DNA of 43,955 nucleotides. Source: a virus. The notes beneath the pieces are model-generated. The model did not search any database and was not told the origin of the DNA. It worked only from the letters and a program-made list of their open reading frames with translations. Of this stretch, positions 7,903 to 37,303 are shown in pieces. The stretch lies in UHGV virus genome UHGV-0152227; one strand, written 5' to 3'. Each line of letters begins with the position of its first letter. Within the stretch, counting starts at the first letter, position 1. A program made the translations under genes and the position numbers.

Positions 7903-8160
7903 ATGCAGCAGTATCACTATCCACTGGAAGACGGATTTACCGAAAGGATTCACACGCCGGGAGGCGTCAGATCACTGGTGGAGGGATCGCACTTGATGAA
8001 ATTACTCCGGGATCTCGATAAGGATGGATTTAATGTCGATGGCCCACTTGCCGAACTGACTGCACTGATTAACTACGTCACCAGCTCACAGATGTCTATG
8101 CAGGATCTGCAAACACATCTCGACTATTGTGCCGAACAATTACGAAAACAAACCAGATAA
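7903..8160 (+). CDS. 85-aa stand-alone homologue of the antirepressor C-terminal domain
   Basis: GGAGA RBS 7 nt before the ATG at 7903. By hand alignment it is about 40 percent identical to the shared C-terminus of the 8476 and 41902 proteins (IH.P.GV..L.E.S.LM.LL..L..DG..V.G..AELT...Y...D.QTH..Y). Confidence 0.7.
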   Translation: MQQYHYPLEDGFTERIHTPGGVRSLVEGSHLMKLLRDLDKDGFNVDGPLAELTALINYVTSSQMSMQDLQTHLDYCAEQLRKQTR

Positions 8161-8191
8161 GGTTTGCAATTACCAAGTGGAGTGCTTATAT

Positions 8192-8238
8192 TTACCTTTG
8201 CGGTAAATTTACATCGCACTCCTCTTGTGCCATAGTAA
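8192..8238 (+). promoter_or_regulatory. operator plus promoter of the antirepressor-1 leader
   Basis: Perfect dyad TTACC TTTGC GGTAA (8192-8206), then TTTACA (8208-8213), 17-bp spacer, CATAGT (8231-8236). Confidence 0.5.
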
Positions 8239-8296
8239 TCGGGTACTGGCAAAATCCAGTGCCGGGATTGGCGTCCCGAGTTACTAAGTGGCGCAT

Positions 8297-8320
8297 ACCA
8301 CGCCAGACGTGGTTTTTTTA
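8297..8320 (+). terminator. rho-independent terminator/attenuator inside the antirepressor-1 leader
   Basis: Stem ACCACG (8297-8302) / CGTGGT (8308-8313), loop CCAGA, then a T6 run. Two more hairpins precede it (ACTGG..CCAGT and CGGGA..TCCCG). Confidence 0.7.
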
Positions 8321-8344
8321 TGCGTTAAGCACAGCTATATCCGA

Positions 8345-8420
8345 ATTATGGTGGGCTGGGCAGGGGTCCGAAAGGACGCCGGTACCACTTAGGCCGGTAC
8401 GCCAACCTTGTCCAGTTCAC
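8345..8420 (+). ncRNA. candidate c4-like antisense RNA 1 (boundaries approximate)
   Basis: ATGGTGG (8348-8354) is complementary to CCACCAT (8471-8477, includes the ant1 ATG). CCACTTAG (8385-8392) is complementary to CTAAGTGG (8457-8464, overlaps the SD). A closing helix pairs 8355-8362 with 8409-8416 (6 WC + 2 GU). No plausible ORF. Confidence 0.4.
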
Positions 8421-8475
8421 CACCAGTAATTGGCGTTGCGGTGGTGATTAAAATCACTAAGTGGAGATAACCACC

Positions 8476-9186
8476 ATGGCTAATGCTCAAACTGCCATCT
8501 TCAAATTTGAATCTGTTAACCCTATCCGTTCCATCATTATCGATGGCCAACCATGGTTTGTAGCCCAAGACGTTTGTAGTGCGCTGCGTATCCAAAACGT
8601 CACCCAAGCACTTGAAAAACTGGATGATGATGAAAGGTCTATGTTCAACATAGGGCATGAACATCGTGCAATTTTTGACAGCCGAGTAAAAGAGATCAAC
8701 ATCATCTCCGAGTCAGGCCTCTACACACTGATCCTCCGCTGCCGCGACGCAGTGACACCAGGCACTATCCCCTACCGCTTTCGTAAATGGGTTACAGGTG
8801 AGGTTCTTCCTCAGATCCGCCGCACCGGAAGTTACATTAAAAACTCGCTCCCGCAGGAAGAACGCATAAAGATGGTTGCCGACCAGGTTGCAAACGCCAC
8901 AGCATCAGCAGTGATGCAGGCAATGAAGATAGAGAACAAAACCTACAGCGCCCCACTGAAGCCCGGCTACCGTAGCCTGATTCATTCGCCGTCTGGTGTT
9001 CTCGGCCTGACGGAGAACTCACTGCTGATGAATCTGCTGAACCAGTTACAGGAAGACGGGCACGACGTATCGGGCGCGGCGGCGGAGCTGACCACCATGT
9101 TCTGCTACATCGTCGGTGTGAGCAAATGCCTGCGTGATATCCAGACGCACGCGGAGTACATCAACGACAAGGCTGGGTTCTTCTGA
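8476..9186 (+). CDS. antirepressor 1 (BRO-N N-terminal domain + shared C-terminal domain)
   Basis: BRO-N signature (FESVNPIRSIIIDGQPWFVAQDVCSALRIQN...SESGLYTLILR). GGAG RBS 9 nt before the ATG at 8476. Confidence 0.8.
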   Translation: MANAQTAIFKFESVNPIRSIIIDGQPWFVAQDVCSALRIQNVTQALEKLDDDERSMFNIGHEHRAIFDSRVKEINIISESGLYTLILRCRDAVTPGTIPYRFRKWVTGEVLPQIRRTGSYIKNSLPQEERIKMVADQVANATASAVMQAMKIENKTYSAPLKPGYRSLIHSPSGVLGLTENSLLMNLLNQLQEDGHDVSGAAAELTTMFCYIVGVSKCLRDIQTHAEYINDKAGFF

Positions 9187-9230: not shown

Positions 9231-9273
9231 TTGCAGACTGTGGGTGAATAGCGTACTATTACCTCAAGGGTAA
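9231..9273 (+). promoter_or_regulatory. promoter plus operator of the toxin-like pair
   Basis: TTGCAG (9231-9236), 17-bp spacer, TACTAT (9254-9259). Perfect dyad TTACC TCAAG GGTAA at 9259-9273, abutting the -10. Confidence 0.55.
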
Positions 9274-9333
9274 ACGGATTGGTTTCATTTTTATTAATCC
9301 GTGTAATGAACTTATGAGATATGAGGTAATGTC

Positions 9334-9513
9334 ATGCGAAACGAAAAATTGCAGATGCGTAGAGCGCAAGCTGCCGCAAGACGTTCTTTCAATGGAAGCG
9401 TAGAGTACGTAAAAGTTACTATGACAAAAGATCACGCAAGTCGCGTATCCCGCGCTTTCTTTGATTCTCGTAACAATAAGGAAAATTATGAGTTCGTCTG
9501 CGTCGCAGAATGA
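9334..9513 (+). CDS. 59-aa basic protein, candidate antitoxin/regulator (below the ORF-track size cut-off)
   Basis: ATG at 9334 with a GAGGT RBS 6 nt upstream. MRNEKLQMRRAQAAARRSFNGSVEYVKVTMTKDHASRVSRAFFDSRNNKENYEFVCVAE. Its 3' end overlaps the next gene start by 26 nt. Confidence 0.45.
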   Translation: MRNEKLQMRRAQAAARRSFNGSVEYVKVTMTKDHASRVSRAFFDSRNNKENYEFVCVAE

Positions 9514-10033
9514 TAAAAATCAAATTGTCAGATATAAGGGTCGAGTATTGCATACGCAAAATTTCTCGGCCCTTTGTGCATCTGATCTTGAGCTGAAGAA
9601 AGTATCTGATGCCTTTACCCAGTATTGGAAAACGGGATACCATCCATCTCTTGGTAAAGATGCTGCATTTGCTCGTCCGACAGAAATGCTTAAACTAAAT
9701 GTCAGGCATACTCATGTCGATAACCAAGACTATATTCCAGAAGATAGTGATAAAAAACACACTGGTAAAAAATCATCTTGGGATGCATGGAAAAATATAG
9801 CGTCTGTGCAAGTAAAATGCATACCAACAAGTGATTGCTTTTTAGTTTATTCGGTAAATCACAATCGTGATGCGCTGGTTATGTTTTTTGTTGACGCAGA
9901 TGCCCACAACATAACTGAGCAAGAAGAGTTTAAAGAGGCAGCAATCACTATCAGTTATCAATTCTTTCAGAAAACAAAAACAGAACCAATGCCTTTAGAA
10001 GAAGATCTTTTTTCTGATAAATGGAAGGAATAA
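9488..10033 (+). CDS. YafO-like toxin-family protein (tentative), 181 aa
   Basis: AAGGA RBS 6 nt before the ATG at 9488. By remembered alignment to E. coli YafO: SLGKDAAFARP..LNVRHTHV matches IFGRDALYDD..ERVAHIHL, and PTSDCFLVYSV...ALVMFFVDADAH matches RTNDEAHLVYC...AWLLIAILKPEPH. Confidence 0.5.
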   Translation: MSSSASQNDKNQIVRYKGRVLHTQNFSALCASDLELKKVSDAFTQYWKTGYHPSLGKDAAFARPTEMLKLNVRHTHVDNQDYIPEDSDKKHTGKKSSWDAWKNIASVQVKCIPTSDCFLVYSVNHNRDALVMFFVDADAHNITEQEEFKEAAITISYQFFQKTKTEPMPLEEDLFSDKWKE

Positions 10034-10055
10034 GCCCGCGTTGCGGGCTTTTTTG
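10033..10055 (+). terminator. rho-independent terminator after the toxin-like gene
   Basis: Stem AGCCCGC / GCGGGCT, loop GTT, then TTTTTG. Confidence 0.85.
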
Positions 10056-10085
10056 TGGACGAAACAAAAGTCAGTGCTACACTCA

Positions 10086-10113
10086 TTGACGCCACATTGA
10101 GGTGGCTTATAGA
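10086..10113 (+). promoter_or_regulatory. sigma70-type promoter of the small secreted peptide gene (no operator)
   Basis: TTGACG (10086-10091), 16-bp spacer, TATAGA (10108-10113). Confidence 0.4.
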
Positions 10114-10126
10114 TGGAAATTTCACA

Positions 10127-10288
10127 ATGAAAAAAGCATTTGCTGCACTGTTCGTTTTGTTGTCTCTGGTAGCTTCAACTCAGGCCTTTGCCGGTCGTTG
10201 TCAGCACGACAGCGATACTGCCGCTGACGGCTCCCGCTGCGGTGGGCGTTCTGCGGATTCCCGCCCTGGCGGCGGTGGCATTCGTTAA
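10127..10288 (+). CDS. 53-aa secreted peptide (signal peptide + 31-aa Gly/Arg/Asp-rich mature part with 2 Cys)
   Basis: MKKAFAALFVLLSLVASTQAFA|GRCQHDSDTAADGSRCGGRSADSRPGGGGIR. GC-rich, with its own promoter and hairpins on both sides. Confidence 0.55.
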   Translation: MKKAFAALFVLLSLVASTQAFAGRCQHDSDTAADGSRCGGRSADSRPGGGGIR

Positions 10289-10293
10289 AAACA

Positions 10294-10311
10294 AGGCCGC
10301 GAAAGCGGCCT
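10294..10311. terminator. terminator hairpin between convergent genes (T-run only on the minus strand)
   Basis: Stem AGGCCGC / GCGGCCT with a GAAA loop. The minus strand continues TGTTTTTA. Confidence 0.7.
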
Positions 10312-10324
10312 GTGACATGTCACA
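10311..10324. repeat. palindrome TGTGACATGTCACA (copy 1 of the GTGACATGTCAC element)
   Basis: Perfect 14-bp palindrome directly between the stop codon of the 186-aa gene (10325) and the terminator hairpin. Confidence 0.9.
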
Positions 10325-10885
10325 CTACATTGATATATGATTCATAAAGTAGCTTAAAGATTTACTTCCCAGAAAAGAAATTTCTTTTCCTGGATATGTC
10401 GCAATAATTGAGCATGACTTATCCCCGTTAGAGGTAACAAATCCTGAATAACCTACTTGTTCTTTACCATTTTGTTGCTTGGCTAAAAAGTAGAGGTAGC
10501 TTATCTTTTTGCCCTCTGGGTAAAACTCTGCCAAACCAGTATCGGTGATTGAATATTTTATTCTCCCGCCTTGAGTAACGTTTTCCATCTCAAGTTTAGC
10601 TATGTCTTTTCTGTTGTATTCAGCATTGATTTTCCTTTCGAAATCAATGTTGTTTTCAAATGAGTAGGAAGCAACAGTCTGAATAGATGGGAACACGTTT
10701 ATCTGGATGCCTCCACAGTCGGCACAGGTATAAAGGTATGAATCAGATGGAATCCCCATAAAAGAAAACTGAGTTACCTTAAATTTATCGCTATCTCCAA
10801 AGTATTGAAGTTCGCATTTAACATTTTGCCCTGCAAAAGAAAATGCAGACATCAATATTGAAACAAAAAATATAATTGCCTTCAT
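10325..10885 (-). CDS. AT-rich secreted/periplasmic protein of unknown function (186 aa)
   Basis: Signal peptide MKAIIFFVSILMSAFSFA|GQ. Its start lies 2 nt after the stop of the 850-aa ejection protein gene (TAATAATG), yet the base composition is clearly more AT-rich than the late operon. Confidence 0.75.
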   Translation of the reverse strand: MKAIIFFVSILMSAFSFAGQNVKCELQYFGDSDKFKVTQFSFMGIPSDSYLYTCADCGGIQINVFPSIQTVASYSFENNIDFERKINAEYNRKDIAKLEMENVTQGGRIKYSITDTGLAEFYPEGKKISYLYFLAKQQNGKEQVGYSGFVTSNGDKSCSIIATYPGKEISFLGSKSLSYFMNHISM

Positions 10886-10887
10886 TA

Positions 10888-13440
10888 TTATTTACCTAGC
10901 ATGAACTGCGATGGTGGGATCAGAAAGTCGTTACCCTGCTCACGCTCAACACGGCGCTGATAACGCTCAAGAGAGCCTGGGTCAAGGGCATCTTGTATCC
11001 GGTTCAATATTAAACCATTCATCGCCGTACGAAGCCAGAACACGTTGAGGAATGGCGTATTGTCAAGTGCCGTGCGATACCAGTCACCCAAATCTGCATC
11101 CCCTCTCGTGGTCTGCTGGAGCAGCGTGATAATGCTGTCAGCGTTCGATGCTGCTGGCCCCATTAGCGACGTAACCGGCCCGGCCCCCATGCGGTTGACC
11201 TCGCCAAACATGAAGTCACCCAAGATGCCAAGACCGCCCCCCTGAGATGCGGCTGCGAGAAACGTCTTGGCATCTGCCGGGCGTGGTGTTTGCCCTTTCA
11301 GCATGAGTTTTGACTGCATGGAGATATAACCAAACATAGTCGCCCAGACAAAGAGGTTTGCAGCACCAAGGAAAGCCCCCTTCCCGTTACGTAGCAGCGC
11401 ATTCGTCAGCGATCCGGTTTTCGACTCACCAAGCCCAGCAGGAATATAACCACGCCCGAATACTTCGCGTCCTAGTACGTTCTGCATGAAGCTTGCAGTG
11501 AACGATTTGTACTGACCAGCGAATCGTATTGCTTCCCCAGCCACCGTTCCTGGCACCGTGCCCATCTTCATAAACGCCTGCGTGCGATCGCCAGGCTCTG
11601 ACATGGCGATATTCAGGCGGTCAAGGATGTAGCCGCGCAACTGCCCTTCCAATTGATCGCGTGCGTCAGCGATAGCGCGCTGCGTTGGTTTGATCCCCTT
11701 ACTCTCTACATAACCGGCAATCACTTCGTCAGGCACGCCGCGGATGCCGCTGGTCGTCATGAACTTACGACCTTCGCTATCGGCCATGTCCATGTTGCGA
11801 AAAATTTCCCACTCACGTTCGCCAATACCGTGCAGATCCAGCACGCGTCGCAGGTCTTCCGGTAGCCGCGCATGAGACTGGTCAGCATTCTTTGCAAGCC
11901 AGTTGGTTATCATCATGGCGTTGCTGTTGCGACCGCTCTCGGTCCAGAAGTTCATGAGGTTGTACTTAAAGAAAAGCTGCTGCGCGCGACCAAGCTTTCC
12001 ATTCAGCGTGTCATCACCAGATATGCGCCGGATGATTTCCTGCGTCATGGAGTCGGAATAAACTCCGATAGAGGAAAGGATCTCTTTCTGCTCCGCGCTG
12101 TTGTAACGCGTGAAGCGGCCTCTCATAGCACCAAGCAACGCCTGCATAAAATTCTGCCCTTGGTAGCGCATCTCGGTAGCGGCGATAGGCACGTCGTTAA
12201 ACGATGAGATTACCGCGCCACCAAGTTGGCTCATACGCAACCAGCCGCGTACAGCCGCCGACGCATTGGCCCAGCCTACGCTGCCAGGAATATTTAGCGA
12301 GCCGTCAACCTGCGGCATTACGGTACGGTTAATGCGACGCACCTTCGTCATGTAGTCAGCCAACGCTGCCGGTCTTCCGGATTTGCTGATATCTTCAGCA
12401 ATGGCGTCCGTCAGGTACTTAAACATGTTCTGTGGGTTAGTGCCCAGTACGCGCATCATGCCCGTTGTGCGGGCAGCGCTGTTTAAGCCACCAAACAGCG
12501 CTTCTCGCAGGCTGCCGGTGCCGAATTGCTGGTTGTACTCGTGCCACGAGATACCATCTTTGAAGTGCAAAATTCGCTCTTGGCTGGCGCGTTTAGCTGC
12601 GTTCGCCGATCCCTTAAAGCCATTCATCCAATCGGGCTTTTCAGATGTAAGATGCACGCCGGAAGCCAGCCCGTTATAAATGTTACGCGTGAACTGCTCG
12701 CGGTCAGCCACGCCGTCAAAAGTGCGCTCATCAAGGCGCGGGAGAATAGCATTTCGCCATGCTTCATAACCTGCGGCGCGGATCTTCATGATGTCGTGTG
12801 ACTGGCGCACTATATAGCCCGGCTCTTTGCGTATCCATGCCCCGGCGCGGTTCTCATCAATGCGCGCAGTTTCCTGCCATTTCATGATGATTTGTGCAGC
12901 GCTTACGGATTGCTTTGTCATACCGTCAGTTGACTGCCCGCGCCCTATGCGCCACATTGCATCGGCAATTTCCCGGTCATTGCTGCCGCTGGCGATGAAT
13001 TGCACCAGCCCGGCACGGTCAAAATCGTAGTTGATACCGGAATGATACTTGCCGCGCAGTTGCGCCACCTCCGAAGATACCGACCGGCGGGCGCCGGTAC
13101 GCGCATCGTTGCGGCCAACCAGCATTGCTTCAAGCCCGATATCCGGGCGGTCTTTCCAGATAGTACGAAGCTCTCTAAGTCGTTGTGCGGCAATACGGGC
13201 GTTGATTGCCTTATTGCGAGCCTCAATCTGTTTTGCCAGCATATCGGCATTGCTCAGTTCTTCCGCTGCGCGCATCGCGGCCTCTTCCAGAGACAGCGCC
13301 TCATTGGTCGCCAGAATTCGCCTAGTGGTGTCGTTCATGTCACGCACCAGCGACTCCATCTCATCGGAAGAAAGCTCGCGACCAGCGGCAGCATTTACAC
13401 TGCGCTCGCACTGCGTCAAAAATTCGTTTGCTGCCATCAC
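10888..13440 (-). CDS. large internal virion / DNA-ejection protein (850 aa)
   Basis: Long ORF in the late operon downstream of the other internal proteins. Its C-terminal third has hydrophobic Gly-rich segments. Position resembles the epsilon15/T7-type core proteins. Confidence 0.7.
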   Translation of the reverse strand: MMAANEFLTQCERSVNAAAGRELSSDEMESLVRDMNDTTRRILATNEALSLEEAAMRAAEELSNADMLAKQIEARNKAINARIAAQRLRELRTIWKDRPDIGLEAMLVGRNDARTGARRSVSSEVAQLRGKYHSGINYDFDRAGLVQFIASGSNDREIADAMWRIGRGQSTDGMTKQSVSAAQIIMKWQETARIDENRAGAWIRKEPGYIVRQSHDIMKIRAAGYEAWRNAILPRLDERTFDGVADREQFTRNIYNGLASGVHLTSEKPDWMNGFKGSANAAKRASQERILHFKDGISWHEYNQQFGTGSLREALFGGLNSAARTTGMMRVLGTNPQNMFKYLTDAIAEDISKSGRPAALADYMTKVRRINRTVMPQVDGSLNIPGSVGWANASAAVRGWLRMSQLGGAVISSFNDVPIAATEMRYQGQNFMQALLGAMRGRFTRYNSAEQKEILSSIGVYSDSMTQEIIRRISGDDTLNGKLGRAQQLFFKYNLMNFWTESGRNSNAMMITNWLAKNADQSHARLPEDLRRVLDLHGIGEREWEIFRNMDMADSEGRKFMTTSGIRGVPDEVIAGYVESKGIKPTQRAIADARDQLEGQLRGYILDRLNIAMSEPGDRTQAFMKMGTVPGTVAGEAIRFAGQYKSFTASFMQNVLGREVFGRGYIPAGLGESKTGSLTNALLRNGKGAFLGAANLFVWATMFGYISMQSKLMLKGQTPRPADAKTFLAAASQGGGLGILGDFMFGEVNRMGAGPVTSLMGPAASNADSIITLLQQTTRGDADLGDWYRTALDNTPFLNVFWLRTAMNGLILNRIQDALDPGSLERYQRRVEREQGNDFLIPPSQFMLGK

Positions 13441-26688: not shown

Positions 26689-26725
26689 TTGACATTTAAC
26701 GCACAAATTATTACCTTTAGGGTAA
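26689..26725 (+). promoter_or_regulatory. promoter plus operator of the tRNA/gp49 moron
   Basis: TTGACA (26689-26694). Perfect dyad TTACC TTTAG GGTAA (26711-26725) overlaps the expected -10 position. The -10 hexamer itself is poor (TACCTT). Confidence 0.45.
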
Positions 26726-27047: not shown

Positions 27048-27124
27048 GTGGCATTAGCTCAGTTGGACAGAGCAACCGCCTTCTAAGCGGTTGGTCGCAG
27101 GTTCGAATCCTGCATGCCACGCCA
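27048..27124 (+). tRNA. tRNA-Arg (anticodon UCU, reads AGA), CCA encoded
   Basis: A full cloverleaf folded by hand: acceptor GTGGCAT/ATGCCAC, D stem GCTC/GAGC, anticodon stem ACCGC/GCGGT with loop CT-TCT-AA, T arm GCAGG-TTCGAAT-CCTGC, discriminator G, then CCA. Confidence 0.92.
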
Positions 27125-36718: not shown

Positions 36719-37303
36719 ATGAAAAGTATCCAGGACGTCCGCAGGCAAAATCTCAACGACTTGATCGACCGTGAATTCAATGGTGTTCAGACGCGGATGG
36801 CAGAAAAACTTGGAACTCAGGCAAATCTGGTAAACCGCTGGGCTCTTGGCAAGAAGGTTATCGGCGACCAGGTTGCACGAAAAATTGAAGCTGCCGCCAA
36901 TAAACCCCGTAACTGGCTTGATATCGATCGCTCGCTTTCTCAGGAAGGTTTTCAGCCTGTCGGCCCGAGCGATATAGGTCAGCTGGCGGCTCACAACCTG
37001 GAACGCTGGATGAGCGAAAGCCGCGACCTTTCAACGCAGGGAAAACTACACCGCGCATCCGGCGTCGCCCAGGTGACAATCAGCCGCCTGTTAAACAATG
37101 AGGTCAGCGTTTCCATTTCCACCCTGGAGAATGTTGCATCCGCATTCGGGCGTCACGGCTATGAATTACTGATTCACCCGCACGACCCTGCGACCATCAA
37201 CTATGATCGCTCGCGCTACGCATTGTTACCCGAAACCGAGAAAGCAAAGATCGAAAGTTACATTGAATTTGTCATCAACCAGAACGAAAAAAACAAACAA
37301 TAA
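36719..37303 (+). CDS. prophage repressor with two tandem HTH_XRE domains and no S24 peptidase domain
   Basis: HTH 1 is QTRMAEKLGTQANLVNRWALGKK...PRNWLD. HTH 2 is QGKLHRASGVAQVTISRLLNNEVSVSISTLENVASAFG. No Ser/Lys autocleavage module was recognisable. The RBS is weak or absent. Confidence 0.75.
   Translation: MKSIQDVRRQNLNDLIDREFNGVQTRMAEKLGTQANLVNRWALGKKVIGDQVARKIEAAANKPRNWLDIDRSLSQEGFQPVGPSDIGQLAAHNLERWMSESRDLSTQGKLHRASGVAQVTISRLLNNEVSVSISTLENVASAFGRHGYELLIHPHDPATINYDRSRYALLPETEKAKIESYIEFVINQNEKNKQ

Follow-up and report, generated by a model that had tools for sequence, protein, structure and literature searches.

We analyzed the region upstream of the antirepressor gene ant in the viral genome UHGV-0152227, a stretch of 43,955 nucleotides (nt) that is hereafter called the window, and whose source phage is a phiV10/epsilon15-like (Uetakevirus) coliphage. 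The gene encodes a protein of 236 amino acids (aa) with a Bro-N domain (Pfam, 71.5 bits against a cut-off of 25.6), and homologues of this product carry the annotation antirepressor or anti-immunity protein. No convincing open reading frame (ORF) was found in the gap 8240-8475, in agreement with an initial annotation of this DNA, which had seen no credible ORF between the operator/promoter and ant; the small ORFs 8127-8429, 8288-8392, and 8348-8392 were dismissed, because their reading frames are not kept in relatives. The region is most probably a complete immI module of the type found in phage P1, composed of an IsrK-like leader RNA, a C4 RNA, and target boxes on the ribosome-binding site (RBS) of the antirepressor gene. 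The initial annotation had proposed a layout like that of P1/P7 immI, with decoy, antisense, and RBS target boxes, and this proposal was upheld by covariance models, by a box-by-box match with P1, and by three-way covariation. The features of the locus, together with the repressor gene that is relevant to it, are the following:

8192-8206, no strand assigned: predicted repressor operator, the palindrome TTACCTTTGCGGTAA, ending 1 nt before the -35 hexamer
8208-8236, plus strand: predicted sigma-70 promoter (consensus scan), with -35 TTTACA, a 17-nt spacer, and the extended -10 TGc-CATAGT
8243-8319, plus strand: IsrK-type leader small RNA (sRNA), containing the c4-a1b1 element and a terminator (Rfam IsrK RF01394)
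8268-8274, plus strand: a1 box, TTGGCGT, in the loop of leader hairpin 2, exact complement of a'
8284-8291, plus strand: b1 box, CTAAGTGG, in the linker before the terminator, exact complement of b'
8297-8319, plus strand: intrinsic terminator of the leader sRNA (terminator scan: 8297-8313, then a T-run)
8344-8427, plus strand: C4 antisense RNA (Rfam C4 RF01695)
8385-8392, plus strand: b' antisense box, CCACTTAG, in the loop of C4 hairpin 2, at the same position as P1 b' CACUAAC
8399-8405, plus strand: a' antisense box, ACGCCAA, in the unpaired joint after hairpin 2, at the same position as P1 a' CUGUCAA
8430-8436, plus strand: a2 target box, TTGGCGT, 6 nt past the predicted C4 3' end
8440-8447, plus strand: conserved GGTGGTGA, with predicted pairing to the C4 3' strand TCACCACC (8417-8424) or to ACCACC (8470-8475) beside the AUG; its role is putative
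8457-8464, plus strand: b2 target box, CTAAGTGG, overlapping the ant Shine-Dalgarno sequence GGAG (8462-8465), 10 nt before the ATG
8476-9186, plus strand: ant, the regulated antirepressor gene
36719-37303, plus strand: phage repressor gene, 194 aa, presumed from homology and flanking operators to encode the binder of the 8192-8206 operator

The whole window was scanned with the Rfam models at their curated thresholds. The C4 model RF01695 matched over its full length (model positions 1-87) with 66.0 bits against a cut-off of 45 (E = 9e-11), and the IsrK model RF01394 reached 63.5 bits against a cut-off of 50 (E = 2e-11). A C4 covariance-model search and RNA folding were among the checks named in the initial annotation, and both came out in its favor: the region 8240-8500 (261 nt) folded better than shuffled controls (z = -4.4), and, given this value and the two E-values, the arrangement is far beyond chance. 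The ends of the mature C4 were set by homology with the annotated P1 ends, via the C4 model alignment, and on this basis the mature RNA is predicted to span approximately 8350-8424 (75 nt), with its 5' end at the GGU of AU/GGUGG (the slash marks the cut). The minimum free energy structure of 8350-8424 was the family consensus fold with both antisense boxes unpaired (z = -4.6), i.e., a long basal stem of 16 bp around a tetraloop hairpin and a second hairpin, followed by the unpaired joint. The processing motif AU/GGU is present at 8348-8352, and C4 has been described as being cut by RNase P at the GGT motif, with b' occluding the RBS (secondary source PMC5320573). As the 5' strand of the basal stem, the heptamer ATGGTGG (8348-8354) did not vary in any of the C4 copies, including that of P1. 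The leader folded into hairpin 1, hairpin 2 with a1 in its loop, a single-stranded b1, and the intrinsic terminator, which is the three-hairpin layout of IsrK. For comparison, 13 other phages were included, namely phiV10, TL-2011b, phiv142-3, three Klebsiella phages, Enterobacter phage Tyrion, Hafnia phage yong2, Yersinia phage vB_YpM_41, CP-1639, VT2-Sakai, and two Salmonella phages, and nearly all of them had IsrK and C4 above the Rfam cut-offs. Compensatory changes were found in 12 of the 25 pairs of the C4 helices, among 13 phages, and in 9 of the 18 pairs of the leader helices.

All six boxes are perfect matches. The b' box pairs with b2 over 8 nt and the a' box with a2 over 7 nt, in the same geometry as in P1, and the a1 and b1 copies lie 5' of C4, as is typical of the c4-a1b1 motif; the P1-aligned b' position in the window (8385-8392) reads CCACUUAG. 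The sequence strings quoted in the initial annotation were all found in place, including the leader terminator and a GAAA-capped hairpin between its two antisense boxes, and the segments 8281-8302 and 8454-8475, described there as near-duplicates, share 16 of 22 bases. Its antisense box set was half right: b' was correctly identified as complementary to the sequence on the Shine-Dalgarno, the complement being exact and present also in the leader, while the real second set, formed by a' and its two TTGGCGT copies, was missed. Among the 13 phages and P1, a' took four forms (ACGCCAA, AGACCAA, GTCTCAA, and CUGUCAA) and b' at least eight, and each variant was mirrored in the upstream and downstream copies, partly via G-U pairs. 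A MAFFT alignment of the whole region from leader to ATG left the hypervariable boxes out of register, and self versus non-self complementarity matrices were used instead; the matrix of the 13 phages showed box specificity. Next, a pattern scan of viral contigs gave 122 matches, 63 of which were kept as structurally valid C4 copies; the other 59 failed the hairpin-2/joint filter and were discarded as chance matches or variants missed by the filter. The 63 copies contained 39 different a'/b' combinations. Their upstream and downstream copies were both at least 7 nt long in 97% of cases for the a boxes and 94% for the b boxes, and the mean helix was longer in self than in non-self comparisons (6.95 vs 4.47 nt for a, and 8.15 vs 5.87 nt for b). 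At least 10 variants of a' and at least 30 of b' were seen here. Family membership, fold, boxes, their positions, and their covariation are shown by these analyses. The b box of the window is also that of phiv142-3, and its a box is that of phiV10, suggesting box recombination. We propose that the a/b boxes serve as a label of immunity specificity, distinct from one related phage to the next; box covariation between phages also underlies the heteroimmunity of P1 and P7. The octamer GGTGGTGA after a2 has counterparts elsewhere, as GGTGGTG was found within 40 nt downstream of C4 in 42 of the 63 viral copies.

A separate observation was made in IMGVR_UViG_2671181028_000005 (L064), where three tandem units, 656 bp apart, lie at approximately 9300-11300. 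Every unit combines a C4 of its own with a downstream protein gene, which is similar in the three, and the a'/b' specificity differs from unit to unit; the arrangement resembles an array of antirepressor-like modules with separate addresses.

Regarding the leader, a run of at least six T was found 5' of C4 in 62 of the 63 viral-contig copies. It was also observed that GCGCAT (8291-8296) and ATGCGT (8320-8325) can lengthen the terminator stem in the read-through RNA, and that this pair covaries in Klebsiella and Hafnia phages (CAT:ATG to CAC:GTG), suggesting a structure specific to read-through transcripts. A role of b1 as antiterminator, through its GTGG and the CCAC of the terminator arm, was dismissed, as this pairing is not kept in phiV10 or the Klebsiella phages. 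Moreover, the models IsrK RF01394 and c4-a1b1 RF03163 match one and the same element in the window (8230-8319), Gifsy-1 (L137, 931-1020), VT2-Sakai (L012, 682-771), and P1 (L014, 218-312). The Rfam C4 clan CL00128 does not include IsrK, which looks like a curation gap.

The predicted transcription start, at approximately 8243, coincides with position 1 of the IsrK model, and the promoter is kept in relatives of the Uetakevirus group. The window contains the operator motif TTACC-N5-GGTAA 14 times, as compared with an expectation of 0.71 (at 7812, 8192, 9259, 10509, 26711, 29838, 29856, 34300, 34362, 36264, 36601, 36649, 37361, and 37423), and this motif is that of seven sites annotated as repressor-binding in the epsilon15 record. 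Same-genus relatives keep its half-sites with a variable spacer; where lambdoid phages carry the module, the promoter is another one and lacks TTACC-N5-GGTAA. The product of 36719-37303 is 42% identical to the epsilon15 gp38 repressor (E = 2e-54), and its gene is flanked by the operator pairs 36601/36649 and 37361/37423. Since the operator has the epsilon15 repressor motif, a homologue of this repressor is encoded, and same-genus relatives keep the half-sites, the module operon is very probably under the lysogeny repressor. With its center near -44, the operator could also be a site of activation rather than repression. With its single and paired sites genome-wide, the motif outlines a putative repressor regulon that extends beyond the immunity region. 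The initial annotation had described the module as gated by the main operator and as novel in this respect. The gating is well supported by the repressor motif; the concept is not new, and we regard the operator at the module promoter as a parallel, because a C1 operator (Oc4, formerly Op51) overlaps the P1 c4 promoter too. Other elements were observed around the promoter: an imperfect third copy of the b-box context, AATTACCAAGTGGAG, lies 5' of it at 8168-8182; a 12-nt inverted repeat (8174-8185/8216-8227) brackets the operator; and, in phiV10, the operator lies inside a long perfect palindrome. Control of the LexA type was dismissed, as the CTGG-N7-CCAG of the leader hairpin, inspected by eye, has the wrong spacing for a LexA box.

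The comparison with P1 was made box by box. The P1 record shows, in order, the operator Oc4, the promoters P2c4 and P1c4, a1 (7 nt), b1 (8 nt), the 77-nt C4, a2, b2, icd, and ant. The window and the immI regions of P1 and P7 belong to one RNA family and agree in the order of their elements. In each, the a boxes have 7 nt and the b boxes 8 nt, a' is placed in the joint and b' in the hairpin-2 loop, b2 covers the RBS of the gene that comes first, the promoter carries a repressor operator, and the regulated product is an antirepressor. In P1, b' lies in the 12-nt loop of the second hairpin and a' in the unpaired joint after it; since b' and a' stand at the equivalent positions in the window, each with both complements, the window holds the full P1 box set. 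The distances match: the a1-b1 spacing is 16 (14 in P1), the a2-b2 spacing is 27 (29 in P1), a2 comes 6 nt after the predicted C4 end (4 in P1), and the b2 of P1 lies 10 nt before the icd ATG. The boxes themselves differ (TTGACAG and GTTAGTG in P1, TTGGCGT and CTAAGTGG in the window), and so does the specificity. In P1, icd precedes ant1/ant2, whereas no leader gene was found between C4 and ant in the window, and b2 therefore lies on the Shine-Dalgarno of ant itself. Other differences are the operator, which is of the epsilon15 repressor type in the window and of C1 in P1; the strong IsrK-type terminator at the end of the window leader, as opposed to P1, where the IsrK model scores only 35 bits; a second promoter without operator, which is annotated in P1; and the host element, which is a chromosomal podovirus prophage here and a plasmid prophage in P1. 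The module is, then, a regulatory cassette of a known type, with its own specificity, that had escaped annotation in this phage group.

Another related system is found in the Salmonella prophage Gifsy-1, where IsrK, c4-a1b1, C4, and IsrJ lie in this order 5' of anrP. The three shared Rfam elements are found in the same order in the window, where the Rfam scan gave no match to isrJ. The a boxes are identical in the two phages (TTGGCGT/ACGCCAA), and both have a leader sRNA with a terminator and read-through, the latter being predicted in the window; the b box differs (TCGGTGAT in Gifsy-1, CCACTTAG in the window). In contrast to the window, the Gifsy-1 promoter has no TTACC-N5-GGTAA operator; a 45-codon frame reaches anrP there, as compared with 14 codons in the window; and the Gifsy-1 module is placed in a lambdoid Q region, whereas the one described here is next to the tail-spike gene. 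Counted from the IsrK start, G28 and G31 of Gifsy-1 are in a1, C159 and C162 in a', and A107 is the A of ATGGTGG. Compensatory mutants G28A/C162U and G31A/C159U have been reported for this prophage (Hershko-Shalev et al. 2016, PMC4825925), and, since the mutated positions map to a1 and a', the published mutants tested the a1:a' helix. In the same study, the read-through mRNA was untranslated, IsrK supplied in trans raised anrP translation 139-fold, and the C4 region yielded a stable processed RNA, STnc1160 (PMC4825925). Both IsrK and STnc1160 are abundant, stable RNAs in Gifsy-1 lysogens under all the conditions tested. Of the IsrK family, an Hfq-binding RNA in Rfam, only the Gifsy-1 member has been shown to bind Hfq and to activate the antirepressor in trans.

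These data allowed us to propose a mechanism. The promoter at 8208-8236, flanked by one copy of the repressor operator, would start a transcript at approximately 8243. Most transcripts would probably end at the leader terminator, generating an IsrK-type sRNA of approximately 77 nt with a1 in a hairpin loop and b1 single-stranded. Read-through transcripts would carry C4, and its excision would probably proceed as in P1, with RNase P acting at AU/GGU (8350) and a 3' end near 8424. The b' and a' boxes of C4 would then pair with b2, on the Shine-Dalgarno, and a2 of the ant mRNA, blocking ribosome binding through b':b2 with a':a2 in support, and therefore no antirepressor would be made. The leader sRNA, with identical a1 and b1 boxes, would compete for C4 as a decoy, or anti-antisense RNA, and Ant would therefore be made only when the leader sRNA is in excess; the leader:C4 ratio, set by promoter activity and terminator read-through, would decide Ant translation. 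For this phage, we infer transcription, termination efficiency, processing, and translational repression. The a1:a' pairing, the activation by the leader sRNA, and the stable small RNAs have been demonstrated in homologues.

Several observations weigh against this reading. The c4-a1b1 model RF03163, run in a permissive scan of 8100-8560 (461 nt), matched at 8230-8282 with 43.4 bits (E = 8e-10), approximately 3 bits below its cut-off of 46.7. The consensus scan gave no clear equivalent of the second, operator-free promoter of P1, and tight shut-off by the single operator in a lysogen would leave little C4, in which case the module would act mainly on infection or induction. In Gifsy-1, the authors credited the activation to a 45-codon ORF coupled to anrP, and not to release from C4, and found that co-expression of STnc1160 strengthened the toxicity of IsrK, which is unexpected for a simple decoy (PMC4825925).

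Among the alternatives, the one that survives best is transcriptional control similar to that of the CI RNA of phage P4, in which C4 bound to the nascent a1/b1 (and a2/b2) would govern termination or Rho-dependent polarity, with translation being secondary; it could act alongside the mechanism proposed above. In the P4 CI/seqA/seqC system, as predicted for the window, a small RNA is processed from the leader of its own operon and has complementary sites upstream and downstream; the P4 system works through premature transcription termination, whereas b2 covers the Shine-Dalgarno in the window. The b1 box ends 5 nt before the leader terminator, which was kept in 62 of the 63 copies, and repression of icd translation by P1 c4 reportedly causes polarity on ant, a result ascribed to Biere et al. 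in 1992. The Gifsy-1 authors cited P4 CI as a structural analogue, likening IsrK/STnc1160 to seqA/CI, and reported an 8-fold transcriptional effect of IsrK (PMC4825925). Nevertheless, this effect is far smaller than the 139-fold translational one, b2 was on the Shine-Dalgarno in all the loci examined, which fits translational occlusion, and no conserved antiterminator alternative with b1 was found in the relatives. We thus consider it unlikely that transcription is the main point of control. Another phage system, P22 sar, is similar to the mechanism proposed here in that a small RNA blocks antirepressor translation in a temperate podovirus; that RNA is a cis-antisense from the opposite strand, whereas the regulator in the window is on the same strand as its target and upstream of it. 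A cis-antisense RNA of the sar type was dismissed, as the minus strand showed nothing promoter-like in 8050-8600 and gave no RNA family match in the permissive Rfam scan of 8100-8560.

The explanation given for Gifsy-1 was weighed in a similar way. According to it, the leader sRNA opens the RBS of a small ORF ('orf45') that starts at the ATG of ATGGTGG, translation of this ORF switches on the antirepressor gene by coupling, and the C4-like fold is only an inhibitory mRNA structure. In Gifsy-1, it is backed by start-codon and stop-codon mutants and by a tagged ORF45 (PMC4825925), and the ATG (8348-8350) is kept in all the relatives. However, the 14-aa frame of the window terminates at 8390-8392, which leaves 83 nt up to the ant ATG, and in the relatives the frame has 3, 8, 14, 15, 33, or 35 aa or is fused to ant; with a length that varies in this way, such an ORF is not the conserved feature. 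In agreement, the Gifsy-1 authors found the nucleotide sequence conserved and the amino-acid sequence variable (PMC4825925). Moreover, the ATG belongs to the basal stem and coincides with the site of C4 processing, and b2 is directly on the Shine-Dalgarno of ant, Gifsy-1 included. This explanation is therefore improbable for the module of the window.

Even less probable is the pairing put forward in the initial annotation, by which ATGGTGG (8348-8354), beside b', would also pair with CCACCAT (8471-8477) over the ant AUG. The complement is indeed exact over 7 nt, and extends to 9 nt with G-U pairs. As a functional box pair it failed: CCACCAT was downstream of none of the 63 other C4 copies, and ATGGTGG was invariant in every C4 whatever the start context, which differs among the relatives. 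In addition, ATGGTGG is locked in the 16-bp basal stem and would be split by P1-type processing (AU/GGUGG), and the CCACC beside the AUG has a simpler pairing partner in cis, the conserved GGTGGTGA. Finally, that the module is an inactive relic is scarcely credible, with six perfect boxes, both folds intact, promoter, terminator, and RBS present, and a sequence at least 99% conserved in 78 E. coli genomes.

The module is widespread. The 291-nt sequence had matches in 256 phage records and was found in 453 of 5,426 complete E. coli genomes, with 78 copies at least 99% identical; E. coli ECONIH2 carries an identical copy, without RNA annotation there. Over the module stretch, the identity was 98% with HEMP4 and 94% with TL-2011b. 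Neither IsrK nor C4 was detected in phage epsilon15 by the Rfam scan at the gathering threshold. The initial annotation had stated that a c4 module was undescribed in an epsilon15-type podovirus, and this holds in the literature we searched, where no paper on this module in phiV10-like phages was found. Its novelty is limited: standard Rfam models already detect the module in phages such as phiV10, TL-2011b, and Tyrion, a 2010 report described the c4 and c4-a1b1 motifs in gamma-proteobacteria and phages, and the Gifsy-1 homologue has been dissected by experiment. A 2025 review treats IsrK and c4 as separate systems.

Some neighboring elements were also noted. Directly 5' of the module, an 85-aa ORF (7903-8160, plus strand) is a stand-alone paralogue of approximately the C-terminal 75 residues of the antirepressor (42% identity, E = 9e-16), of the phiV10p24/epsilon15 gp19 type; epsilon15 retains gp19 though it lacks C4 and IsrK. 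The product could be a modulator of Ant or of the Ant target. Past ant, whose 3' end is adjoined by a single operator copy (9259-9273), the ORF 9461-10033 (plus strand, 190 aa) gave a marginal match to the YafO toxin (25.8 bits against a cut-off of 25), and may be a repressor-controlled toxin or a moron. A tRNA gene is found at 27048-27121 (plus strand, 73 bits), with the anticodon loop CUUCUAA read by eye as UCU (Arg), and an operator-like site lies near it (26711-26725); this gene may mark the prophage attachment site or be phage-borne. The Rfam family sRNA-Xcc1 matched at 41771-41860 (plus strand) with 64.2 bits against a cut-off of 53.

Taking the comparisons jointly, we tentatively suggest a wider reading, which we hold to be somewhat short of an even chance: IsrK-type leaders in general may be dedicated decoys for the C4 of the same transcript, with Ant translation set by the leader:C4 ratio and not by 'orf45'; IsrK RF01394 and c4-a1b1 RF03163 would be one element; the a/b boxes would be a recombining, combinatorial immunity barcode among temperate enterobacterial phages; and the switch would here be also under the lysogeny repressor.

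The known principle of this regulation is unchanged by the finding. What it provides is a function for an unannotated intergenic stretch, which approximately 8% of the complete E. coli genomes carry and which also occurs in many phiV10-like, Stx-converting, and Klebsiella phages, and a link between the literature on Salmonella IsrK/STnc1160 and that on P1 c4. The naturally shortened 'orf45' frame found here argues that RNA-RNA competition, and not the small ORF, is the conserved core of the system. The RNA immunity layer of the P1 type reaches beyond P1-like plasmid prophages, as a portable cassette placed before unrelated antirepressor genes and under unrelated repressors, and the sequences of its a and b boxes predict cross-protection between prophages and superinfecting phages.

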